From Gemmatimonadota bacterium (lineage in GTDB: Bacteria; Gemmatimonadota; Gemmatimonadetes; Gemmatimonadales; GWC2-71-9), in contig QHTW01000086.1 of NCBI GenBank assembly GCA_003220955.1, positions 1 to 32,605 on the forward strand: DNA of 32,605 nt, given 5' to 3'. Under the pieces are notes generated by a model that was not told the DNA's origin, searched no databases, and was given only the letters and a program-made list of their open reading frames with translations. Of the stretch, positions 1,275 through 4,741 are shown one piece after another; position 1 is the first letter of the stretch; every line of letters begins with the position of its first letter. The position numbers were made by a program, and so were the translations under genes.

Positions 1275-2342
1275 CTAATCTCCGAAGCTCACTCCCAGAT
1301 CCCGCGCCGTAGCGATGGTATCAGAGTCGAGCGGCACGCGGCGTGGAGCCGCAAGCGCCTCTTGGATCGCGATCGGGACGATCCGGGGCGGCTGTAACGC
1401 CACCATCATCCCGAACTGCCGCTCGGCGACCAGGCGGACGGCGGCGGCACCAAATCGCAATGCCAGCAATCGATCAAAAGTCGTCGGGCTACCGCCGCGC
1501 TGCAGATGTCCGAGCACCAGCGACCGCGTCTCCTTTCCCGTCATCTGTTCGATGGAATGGGCCACCTTGTCGCCGATGCCGCCGAGTCGTTCGTGGGCGG
1601 GATCGATCAGAGAGACCGCGCCGCGTTTCGGAGCGGCGCCCTCGGCGACGACGACAATGCTGAAGTGCCGCCCCTCGGCTTCGCGGCGGCGGATCTTGTC
1701 GCACACTTTGTCGATGTCGAATGGGATTTCGGGAATCAGGATGACATCCGCCGAGCCGGCGATTCCTGAATGCAGCGCGATGAACCCCGCGTAGCGGCCC
1801 ATCACTTCGACGACCATCACCCGCTCATGGCTTTCGGCGGTCGAATGGACCTTGTCGATCGCGTCTGTGGCGGTGGACACCGCGGTGTCGAAGCCAAACG
1901 TCGCGACGGTGCCACCGACGTCGTTGTCGATCGTCTTGGGCACGCCAACGACTGGAAGGCCCTTCTTCCACAGCGTCAGGACGATGCCGAGCGTCCCTTC
2001 GCCGCCGATCGCCACGAGAGCATCCAGCCGATTCGAGCGAAAGGATTCGAGCAGCTCGTCCGTCCGATCCAATTCCGCCCACGCCCCGTCCGGCTGCTGC
2101 ATGCGCCATTTGAGCGGATTGCGGCGGTTCGACGTGCCGAGAATCGTGCCGCCGAGATGCGTGATCCCGCGAACCTCGTTGGGGCCCAGCGGCATGAGCT
2201 CGCCTTCGCCGAGCAGGCTCCCGAATCCCCGCCTGATTCCGACGCATTCCCAACCGCGATGGACGGCGCTCAACACCACGGCGCGGATGACGGCATTCAG
2301 CCCCGGGGCGTCACCGCCGCCCGTGGAGATCGCAATCCTCAC
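1275..2342 (-). CDS. pfkA: 6-phosphofructokinase
   Basis: 355 aa starting MRIAISTGGGDAPGLNAVIRAVV, with IGGEGTLG, GVPKTIDNDV, MGRYAGFIAL and LGHLQRGG, which are canonical PFK family motifs. GTG start at 2342. Confidence 0.9.
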   Translation of the reverse strand: MRIAISTGGGDAPGLNAVIRAVVLSAVHRGWECVGIRRGFGSLLGEGELMPLGPNEVRGITHLGGTILGTSNRRNPLKWRMQQPDGAWAELDRTDELLESFRSNRLDALVAIGGEGTLGIVLTLWKKGLPVVGVPKTIDNDVGGTVATFGFDTAVSTATDAIDKVHSTAESHERVMVVEVMGRYAGFIALHSGIAGSADVILIPEIPFDIDKVCDKIRRREAEGRHFSIVVVAEGAAPKRGAVSLIDPAHERLGGIGDKVAHSIEQMTGKETRSLVLGHLQRGGSPTTFDRLLALRFGAAAVRLVAERQFGMMVALQPPRIVPIAIQEALAAPRRVPLDSDTIATARDLGVSFGD

Positions 2343-2593
2343 CGCTTGGTGGAGGGAGGGTTGGGGCCGGCTGCCCCGCGAATCAGCCGCAGCACTTCAC
2401 CGGGTTCGGCATGCCGCTTGGTGGTTTTCTTGGAGAAGACTCGACGTCCGTCGACGTCGACCTCGAAGACGCCTCCTGACGATTGGATCAGCCGCACGTC
2501 AGCATGCGGGAAGGCATCGCGGAGCTCGGCCGCCAGACCGGTGGCCCGAGGCTCGTAGTTTCAGATGACGCAGTATTCGATGGTGACGGTCAT
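2339..2593 (-). CDS. SelW/SelT/SelH (Rdx) family thioredoxin-fold selenoprotein; in-frame TGA (2563-2561) read as selenocysteine
   Basis: Hand translation from ATG 2593: MTVTIEYCVI-U-NYEPRATGLAAELRDAFPHADVRLIQSSGGVFEVDVDGRRVFSKKTTKRHAEPGEVLRLIRGAAGPNPPSTKR*. It shows the IEYC-x-x-U redox motif, then GGVFEV, G..VFSK and PEPGE, all typical of the family. A hairpin follows the TGA. The stop TGA (2341-2339) overlaps the pfk GTG start. Confidence 0.75.
2522..2554 (-). promoter_or_regulatory. Candidate bacterial SECIS stem-loop
   Basis: The RNA is GAGCCUCGGGCCACC-GGUCU-GGCGGCCGAGCUC and starts 7 nt 3' of the UGA. Outer pairs are GAGC/GCUC and UCGG/CCGA, and the upper stem is CC.CC/GG.GG with one A-C mismatch and bulges. 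The apical loop GGUCU lies 21 nt after the UGA. Confidence 0.55.
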
Positions 2594-2649
2594 GGCGTGA
2601 AGGATAGTCGCGCTTGACACCCCGCGCCACGTCGCCGACCTTGCGCGAC

Positions 2650-4741
2650 ATGCGGCTTCCGTCGCGCTTCTCGGCGGCACCGGCGCTCATCGTGCGTCTC
2701 GCGGTTTCCATTGCCGCACTGGTCAGTTTCGGCGCTGGGCTTGTCGCCTACGTCAACGGCCGCGTTCCCGCGGGGCAGAACCTGCCGCTCGCCGGCGTGC
2801 TGCTCGTCCTCGTCGCCGCGATCACACGCCGCTACGGCATCGCGCTCCCGGGAAACGGCTTCTCGTCGTACGTCCTCGGCGTCATGCTGTACGCCATTCT
2901 CGACCGCGGCTGGGCCTTCGCCGCCATCGTCGCGCCCTTCGCGATGCTCGTGGGCGACGTGCTCCTCCGGCGTATGCCGGTGCGCACCGCGCTTGGAAAC
3001 GCCGCGCACCTGACGGCGGGATCCGCGTTCGTCGGCTGGATGTATCTCCGTCTCAGCGGCGCCACCGGGGCCGCGGCTTTGTCCGCGGACAACGCCTGGG
3101 TCGTTGCCCTCACGGTCGTCCTGTTGCCGGTCATCGTGAACGGCACGTTCTATCTGGAGCTCGCGCTCGGGCAGACGATTGCGTGGGTGGACGCGCAGCT
3201 CACGCTGCGCTGGGAATCGATCGTCTATCTCGTGTCTGCGGCGCTGGCGCTGACGTGGCTGGCCGTCGCGCATGCGCTCATTCCCGTTGGGACGCGCGCG
3301 TTCCTGTTCGCCGCCCTCGGGATCGCCACGGCGGGCAGCTTGCAGGTGTTGCGACTGGGCGTGCGTGCGGACGAGTTGAACCTGATTCAACGACTCGCCC
3401 AGGTCATCGCCGCCGAGTTGACGTTGCTACAGAGCTTCAAGCGCGTACAGGAGCTGACCAGACAGCTCGTCCCCTGGGAACAGATGGGATTTGCCCGCTA
3501 CGATGCACGGACGCGGCAGATGGAGCTCGTGGCCGATAATGCGGCGCAGCCCGGAACCACGTTTCGCTTCGATTCCGCTGAAGCGCCCCGTCGTAGCCCA
3601 TGGCCTTGCAAAGGATCAAGTCATCGTGCCGGGCGGGGAAACGCCGGGTTCGGAGATGCTCGTCCCACTCTACCACGCCGGACAGCTGGTGGGACTATGG
3701 AGCGTGCGGCACTCGGATCCGGCGATGTACCGCCAATCGGACGGAGATCTCCTCGAGCTACTGGCGCCGCAGCTCGCGTTGATGGTCGCGATCGATGGCT
3801 CGTTGCGCCCAGTCACGGGCGCCTCTGATCAGACGATGCAATACGTGCAGACACTCACGGCCACCACGGAGGAGATCCACGCGTCGAGTGAGGAGGTTGC
3901 AGCCGCCGCTCAGCGCGCCAGCCACGGCGCAGGGCAGGCAGCGACTCTGGTCGCCACGGCGTCACGTGAGGCCGGCCAGCTGAGAGACAGCGCCGCCGAG
4001 CTGGCGGCGGCCGGTGATCGGACGCGCGAGGCGGGGGCACAAATGGAGAAAACCGCCGACCGCGTGCGGACCGGGACTCAGGACGCCGTGCGTCAGTTGA
4101 CTGATCTCGGCGCCACCACCGAAGAAAGCGCCGCCGAGGTCGGGCGGCTGCGGGAAGTCGCCACGCAGGTCGAAAAGTTCTCGGAAACGCTCGGGTTCGT
4201 CGCGAATCAGACGAATCTGCTCGCCCTCAACGCAACGATCGAAGCGGCGCGCGCGGGCATTCACGGGCGAGGATTCGCGGTGGTCGCCGACGAGGTCCAC
4301 AAGCTCGCTGAGGCCAGCGGCCGTGAGGCGCGCAACGTCGGCAAGGCGGTCCAGGACACGCGCCGGGCGTTGGACCGCGCCGCCCAACTGATCGAACGAA
4401 TCCGTGGCGATTTGGGCCAGGTCGTTCAGAACTCCGCCGCGTGGCTACAGGACCTCGATCGTATCGCGGAGGCCGCCGCCGAGACCGCACGCGCCGGAAA
4501 ACAGGTGGCGGAGTTCGGTCGCCAGAGTACCGACCTGGCGGCGAAAATCACCGAGTCGCTCGGTCAGGCGCGGGCCGGAGCCCAGACCTCCAGTCAGGAG
4601 GCCGAAGCCGTTGCGGCAGCGGCCGCCGAGCAGTTGCGGGCCATCCAGGATCTCGCGCATGGCGCGACCGAGTTGTCAGCCCTGGCCGAGCAGTTGAGCC
4701 AGGCGCTCCGTTTCATTCGTGGCGGAAACGGGCACCCCTAG
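2650..4741 (+). pseudogene. Polytopic membrane / GAF / methyl-accepting chemotaxis protein, reading frame interrupted near 3586-3589
   Basis: Track ORFs 2614..3828 and 3491..4741 lie in adjacent frames. The first encodes about 7 hydrophobic helices and the start of a GAF-like domain ([36 protein letters not shown]). The second continues it ([41 protein letters not shown]) and ends in the MCP signalling domain ([36 protein letters not shown]). Removing one C from CCCC 3586-3589 joins them. The likely start is ATG 2650 (MRLPSRF...). Confidence 0.65.

Follow-up and report, generated by a model that had tools for sequence, protein, structure and literature searches.

A predicted SelW-like selenoprotein gene with an in-frame UGA and a SECIS-like hairpin upstream of pfk in Gemmatimonadales

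Reading frame and annotation of the selW locus

We analysed a stretch of 32,605 nucleotides from a Gemmatimonadota bacterium (contig QHTW01000086.1 of assembly GCA_003220955.1, hereafter the window), in which a short gene for a SelW-like protein of the Rdx family, here called selW, lies on the minus strand between the 6-phosphofructokinase gene (pfk) and a divergent chemoreceptor gene. The frame opens with the ATG at 2593, encodes MTVTIEYCVI, and then runs through a TGA (2563-2561) and 73 open codons (NYEPRATGLAAELRDAFPHADVRLIQSSGGVFEVDVDGRRVFSKKTTKRHAEPGEVLRLIRGAAGPNPPSTKR) to a terminal TGA (2341-2339). An earlier note, made from the letters of this DNA, had placed the start, the internal TGA and the stop at these positions, and re-translation agreed with all three. 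The note had also claimed that callers of open reading frames (ORFs) split and miss such genes. This was the case here: the mechanical ORF list contained at this locus only a 52-aa fragment with a GTG start (2339-2497), and therefore the selW gene would be missed or truncated. No ATG, GTG or TTG was found in the window sequence between the TGA and codon 33, which is the GTG at 2497. The features of the locus are listed in Table 1.

The same gene is also shortened or misread in public records. The orthologs in NCBI records of metagenome-assembled genomes (MAGs; P0002, P0005, P0012, P0018 and others) are given as N-terminally shortened 'hypothetical proteins' of 47-65 aa that start with MAAE…, and among the JGI records P0004, P0011 and P0117 some render both the internal UGA and the terminal UGA as Trp. 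Gemmatimonadales MAG calls of this kind, without the active site or with Trp at the catalytic position, hide the apparent use of selenocysteine (Sec) in an abundant soil order.

Table 1. Features of the selW-pfk locus, with positions in the window (SECIS, selenocysteine insertion sequence; nt numbers are counted from the U of the in-frame UGA)
Feature	Position	Strand	Basis
SelW-like (Rdx family) coding sequence, predicted selenoprotein	2339..2593	-	84 sense codons including one UGA (predicted Sec), plus stop; translation, profiles, architecture in 80/80 orthologs
Start codon ATG	2591..2593	-	ATG in 81/81 sequences; Rdx profile begins at residue 2
Cys8 codon TGC, first CxxU residue	2570..2572	-	Cys invariant in all orthologs; opposite the first CxxC Cys of PDB 2fa8 and 3dex in the alignment
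In-frame UGA, predicted Sec codon (residue 11, second CxxU position)	2561..2563	-	TGA in 80/80 orthologs; TGT in three lineages; aligns with the second CxxC Cys of solved Rdx structures
SECIS-like hairpin	2522..2554	-	nt 10-42; RNAfold, minimum free energy -17.8 kcal/mol
Conserved upper stem and loop GGCCRCC-GGUCU-GGCGGCC	2528..2546	-	nt 18-36; synonymous-site conservation
Apical loop GGUCU	2535..2539	-	nt 25-29; same GGU-CUG hexamer as the apex of the fdhF SECIS
GTGA overlap of selW stop TGA (2341-2339) and pfk start GTG (2342-2340)	2339..2342	-	Sequence; PFK Pfam domain from residue 2 of the ORF
6-phosphofructokinase gene (pfk), co-oriented downstream, likely same operon	1275..2342	-	Pfam PFK 345 bits; directly downstream in 57/80 loci

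Family membership and predicted fold

The 84-residue product was searched against protein profiles with U replaced by C. The Pfam Rdx profile (PF10262) matched with 76.3 bits (cut-off 22.6; E = 2e-21) over profile positions 1-73 of 74. Two NCBIfam models, TIGR02174 (CXXU_selWTH; 63.3 bits, cut-off 34.2) and the equivalog NF041051 ('SelT/SelW/SelH family (seleno)protein'; 99.8 bits, cut-off 88), matched over the whole domain, beginning with its first strand. The product thus belongs to the Rdx/SelW family, as the earlier note had claimed, with all three models above their curated cut-offs. When the part after the TGA was searched alone, the match started only at profile position 10-11, and therefore the full-length match spans the TGA and has profile positions on both sides of it, as a gene read through this codon should.

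A sequence search of the PDB retrieved the bacterial Rdx proteins 2FA8, 3DEX, 2OJL, 2OKA and 2OBK together with human MIEN1. The segment IEYCVI-U-NY aligned with YCTQCNW of 2fa8 and YCTQCRW of 3dex, with the CxxC of these proteins over C8 and the TGA column. The structure was modelled with AF2 (AlphaFold) for P0001, a natural full-length ortholog with Cys that is 74% identical to the window protein. The model had a pLDDT (predicted local distance difference test) of 89.7, with strand β1 at residues 2-8, the motif in the β1-α1 loop and helix α1 at residues 14-27. In a Foldseek search it matched bacterial SelW-related crystal structures with template modelling (TM) scores of 0.83-0.88 (0.88 for 2fa8) and mouse SelW (2npb) with 0.77. 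The product is therefore predicted to have the thioredoxin-like α/β fold shared with SelW. The redox motif of this SelW-like protein would be Cys8-Val-Ile-Sec11 (CxxU), and the protein presumably acts as a thiol/selenol oxidoreductase.

Conservation of the UGA and of the codons on both sides

Orthologs were collected with one genome per GTDB species, and 80 loci of up to 20 kb each were returned, all from Gemmatimonadales. The peptide pattern that retrieved them (…EPRA.GLAAE) sits downstream of the TGA, and the other pattern used (C, W or R at the critical column) cannot match a TGA. All 80 orthologous loci, from 80 species genomes, showed the same architecture, namely ATG and nine conserved codons (M[TRK]VTIE[YF]CV[VI]), then TGA, then NYEPRA..., and there were 76 distinct sequences among them. 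Since the retrieving pattern is downstream of the TGA, the presence of TGA in 80/80 loci is not an ascertainment artefact. Such constancy of the whole architecture also far exceeds what chance would produce.

The closest proteins were from Gemmatimonadetes MAGs, and the few full-length calls in the databases had C, W or R at the critical column. At the DNA level, the W forms were TGA codons that the caller had read as Trp, with the terminal TGA also turned into W. The C forms (CVVC/CVIC) were genuine TGT codons and occurred in three rarer lineages, whereas the R form was an AGA codon on an 883-bp contig. The earlier note had expected the TGA to fall in the Cys/Sec column of the orthologs, and the TGA codons of the 80 loci together with the TGT codons of the three lineages agreed with this. 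Both TGT and AGA are one base from TGA, suggesting a recent Sec-to-Cys or Sec-to-Arg change, although the AGA may also be a sequencing error. TGT was the codon in each of the three Cys lineages, whereas these genomes strongly prefer TGC for Cys (Cys8 is TGC in 77/81 sequences).

The codons on both sides of the TGA are under purifying selection, with the amino acid conserved and synonymous variation present among the 81 sequences. Thr4 and Pro15, for example, were found in 81/81 sequences and were each encoded by four different codons, and Glu14 was encoded by both GAG and GAA. Codons 12-19 are constrained yet lie before any possible internal start, and therefore ribosomes must pass the UGA. 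Synonymous variation was unusually low at codons 7-13 around the UGA, where Val9 (2567-2569) was GTC in 80/81 sequences, compared to 1.0-1.4 bits at other Val columns. Possibly, Sec decoding depends on a sequence context that includes codons upstream of the UGA.

A SECIS-like hairpin downstream of the UGA

A hairpin was predicted directly 3' of the UGA within the coding sequence, and its 5-nt loop GGUCU begins 21 nt past the UGA. In the bSECISearch consensus, the loop is located 16-37 nt from the UGA and has a G among its first bases. The hairpin has the layout of a SECIS, with the stem-loop directly following the UGA and a small G-containing apical loop at a suitable distance. The earlier note had not mentioned any hairpin, and this element adds to its interpretation.

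The hairpin is constrained at synonymous sites. The synonymous codon entropies of codons 16-22 were 0.52, 0.38, 0, 0, 0, 0 and 0.26 bits among the 81 sequences. Within this stretch, Gly was always GGT, Leu always CTG and Ala always GCG (81/81 each), whereas the codons of the same amino acids elsewhere in the gene had entropies of 0.8-1.9 bits. Codons with four-fold or higher degeneracy differed between the inside and the outside of the stretch (Mann-Whitney, p = 1.6e-4), and the synonymously frozen stretch coincides exactly with the upper stem and loop. The loop codon GGT was unchanged in 82/82 TGA forms but was changed in two of the three Cys lineages, to GGC and to GCT (Ala), respectively (Fisher, p = 8e-4). 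Across 78 distinct sequences, 84.5% of the cells were paired, compared to 20-52% in slid controls. The closing pair 18-36 was G-C in most sequences, A-U in three lineages, and C-G in a Sec form of 59% identity whose neighbours differ; in this form, the 5' side changed Arg to Ile and the 3' side changed synonymously from GCC to GCG. The alignment hence shows this hairpin to be under selection at the level of the RNA.

The SECIS of E. coli fdhF was used for comparison. Its sequence was verified, as it was 100% identical within the annotated Sec-containing fdhF of >5,400 E. coli genomes. It too is a hairpin that closely follows the UGA inside the coding sequence, and its apex has the same GGUCU(G), read as GGU-CUG in the same frame. 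The loop here starts at nt 25, one codon further downstream than in the fdhF SECIS (nt 22). The upper stem here is a GC-rich helix of 7 bp, in which the window's own lineage has an A-C mismatch, whereas the fdhF helix contains a bulged U; the lower stem here is not conserved.

Interpretation as a selenoprotein gene

We consider it very likely that selW is a true selenoprotein gene of the SelW-like kind and carries a SECIS. Judged by its sequence, the gene shows all features of a SelW-like family member and all those of a bacterial selenoprotein gene. Ribosomes would recode the UGA at 2563-2561 to selenocysteine, and the downstream hairpin (nt 10-42, with the upper stem and GGUCU loop at nt 18-36) would act as a bacterial SECIS that presumably brings SelB with its Sec-tRNA(Sec) to a ribosome paused at this codon. 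Decoding would then go on as far as the TGA at 2341-2339; because this stop overlaps the start codon of pfk, pfk would probably be translated by termination-reinitiation. The earlier note had read the gene as a selenoprotein. The family, the CxxU column and the translation through the UGA in that reading were supported, while for residue 11 we strongly infer selenocysteine because of the CxxU chemistry of the family, the alignment of Cys with the TGA, and the fdhF-like SECIS under selection.

Several observations weigh against this interpretation. Covariation in the hairpin was sparse because the stem is nearly invariant, with just two cells showing a double change, and the lower stem was variable. 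In its GC-rich context, the hairpin folded with no better energy than shuffled sequence (z about 0), and an Rfam search around the site at gathering and permissive thresholds returned no SECIS or other family; therefore, comparative evidence was needed for the hairpin. The window and ~1.4 Mb of DNA from related Gemmatimonadales, roughly 20 kb of each genome, yielded no selA, selB, selD or tRNA-Sec, and the one tRNA-Sec prediction in the closest relative was a false positive, as described below. In the literature and supplements, no published statement on Sec use in Gemmatimonadetes/Gemmatimonadota was found.

An alternative is a programmed read-through of the UGA in a lineage without selA, selB, selC and selD, in which the hairpin stimulates near-cognate decoding, e.g., by Trp or Cys. 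The sel genes were not found in the DNA searched, and the data establish read-through and a selected hairpin but not the residue inserted. However, the family is a textbook CxxU selenoprotein family, and the apical loop matches that of the fdhF SECIS, which binds SelB, in every base and at almost the same distance from the UGA. A TGY codon would be the simpler solution if Cys were inserted, and the rare TGT lineages show such a change to be easy, though it is uncommon, while Trp at the catalytic redox position would be chemically senseless. We therefore give read-through without Sec only a slim chance. The chance is slimmer still that the UGA is a stop and that the functional product is the downstream part, made from an internal start (MAAEL..., 47-65 aa) as in the NCBI and JGI calls. 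Although the MAG annotations call the gene in this way, the window lacks a start codon from the TGA to codon 33, and such a product would be without strand β1 and the whole redox motif. In addition, codons 1-19 are under purifying selection, and neither the profiles nor the solved structures can do without the N-terminal strand.

The truncated products of 47-65 aa are also the only ones given by public annotations, and a single base separates TGA from TGT or TGC, as would be expected for a pseudogene, i.e., an Rdx CxxC gene killed by a nonsense mutation from TGY to TGA. Such a gene would not persist unchanged across a whole order, whereas here the TGA is in the same column in all 80 species, with an intact frame and with conservation at the protein level and synonymous variation on both sides, and the orthologs are not copies of one sequence. 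A pseudogene is hence extremely improbable. The same holds for a genome-wide reassignment of UGA to an ordinary sense codon, as in genetic codes 4 or 25, for which the chance is negligible. The JGI calls do render the codon as W, but the same calls also make the terminal TGA a W, which is an artefact. In the window, TGA is the ordinary stop of 7/18 genes, including the Pfam-supported OmpA and peptidase S9 genes and selW itself. The standard code is thus in use elsewhere in the window, and reassignment is excluded.

Searches for Sec machinery and further recoded genes

The machinery was looked for in several ways. With E. coli SelA, SelB and SelD as tblastn queries (of which SelA and SelB proved adequate), no match was obtained in the window and the 80 loci. 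No tRNA was found in the window, and there was no credible tRNA-Sec candidate in the 80 related loci. In the closest relative, ARAGORN reported a tRNA-SeC of 101 nt with the anticodon TCA (L002:17840-17940). This candidate was ruled out, as it is located inside lytB/ispH (Pfam 237 bits), had no Rfam tRNA match even at E<=10, and did not have a cloverleaf fold. GC-rich coding sequence can mimic tRNA-Sec for ARAGORN.

A scan of metagenome contigs with a GC-biased SelA motif yielded 120 true selA loci, and 71 of these also had selB next to selA. When these 120 loci were classed by tetranucleotide frequency and a 5th-order Markov model, none resembled Gemmatimonadales. The best lead among them (L096), which shared a 63%-identical Lhr helicase with a reference locus, was rejected because it was from Candidatus Binatia. 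The window and related DNA were also scanned for a second gene with an in-frame TGA and a GGU-capped hairpin, and off-frame noise was the only outcome.

Comparison with known SelW-like proteins

SelW-like CxxU proteins ranked first in abundance among the selenoprotein families of the Sargasso Sea survey, and their Sec forms outnumber the Cys forms (PMC1088965, PMC1794560). The product described here falls into the same profile family (TIGR02174, NF041051) as the bacterial SelW-like selenoproteins from the Sargasso Sea, complete-genome and Global Ocean Sampling (GOS) surveys of Zhang and Gladyshev (PMC1088965, PMC1794560, PMC2398784). The shared features are a CxxU motif with Sec (here predicted) at the second position, a length of ~80 residues, a SECIS hairpin directly 3' of the UGA within the coding sequence, and an excess of Sec over Cys forms. 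What differs is the host, which is here a soil Gemmatimonadales, and the coupling of the gene to pfk. No mention of soil Gemmatimonadales as a host lineage was found in those surveys or in other literature.

The Cys-containing Rdx structures Atu0228 (2FA8), SAV_2001 (3DEX), 2OBK, 2OKA, 2OJL and 2P0G have the same fold (TM 0.83-0.88), and their CxxC aligns with C8 and U11. They have Cys instead of Sec, are ~20 residues longer, and are 27-40% identical to the product. Mammalian SelW (2NPB; TM 0.77) and MIEN1 (2LJK; TM 0.75) also share the Rdx fold, with CxxU or CxxC in the β1-α1 loop. At ~27% identity they are more distant, and the eukaryotic SECIS is located in the 3' untranslated region and is served by SBP2 and eEFSec.

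We regard the gene as an authentic but unremarkable addition to a bacterial selenoprotein family that has long been known and is routinely truncated by gene callers; the understanding of Sec recoding itself is unchanged. The conservation in 80/80 loci implies that Sec decoding would be a stable trait of the whole order, and no description of it for the phylum was found in the literature.

The selW-pfk overlap and the upstream region

The pfk gene follows selW in 57/80 loci, and the same 4-nt overlap of stop and start codons (GTGA or TTGA) was present in 54/57 of these. A DEAD-box helicase or a HAD hydrolase gene is found in this place in the lineages without pfk after selW. The pfk of the window is identically encoded on a soil metagenome scaffold, and no Shine-Dalgarno sequence was evident for pfk. 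Since both the overlap and the position of pfk are conserved, they suggest a selW-pfk operon with translational coupling. This conserved coupling is a small lead on the function of bacterial SelW-like proteins.

It is doubtful, on the other hand, that the UGA and SECIS of selW act as a selenium-dependent gate on glycolysis. With such a gate, the translation of pfk might depend on ribosomes that have completed selW, and scarce Sec-tRNA(Sec) would lead to termination at codon 11 and to lower pfk output. If this were true, phosphofructokinase levels throughout the soil Gemmatimonadales would be linked to their selenium or redox status.

Upstream of selW, 74/80 loci have a divergent GAF-MCP chemoreceptor gene. 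In the window (2594-2630), the selW ATG is just 20 nt away from the first codon at which this gene could start. The 35 nt upstream of the selW ATG are 60-80% conserved across the 81 loci and contain a TATCCT/TATCGT box that ends 8 nt before the ATG. No Shine-Dalgarno sequence was found in these 35 nt, and a sigma-70 promoter scan gave nothing near the selW gene. The upstream region hints at a leaderless selW mRNA or one with a very short leader.

The GAF-MCP gene itself (within 2614-4741, plus strand) is split in the window into the frames 2614-3828 and 3491-4741. At ~3577, the window is without ~37 nt that are present in a near-identical scaffold (L001) and ~28 nt that are present in L002, in which the gene is a single ORF of 718 aa. 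Either an indel in the assembly or a true frameshift accounts for the split.

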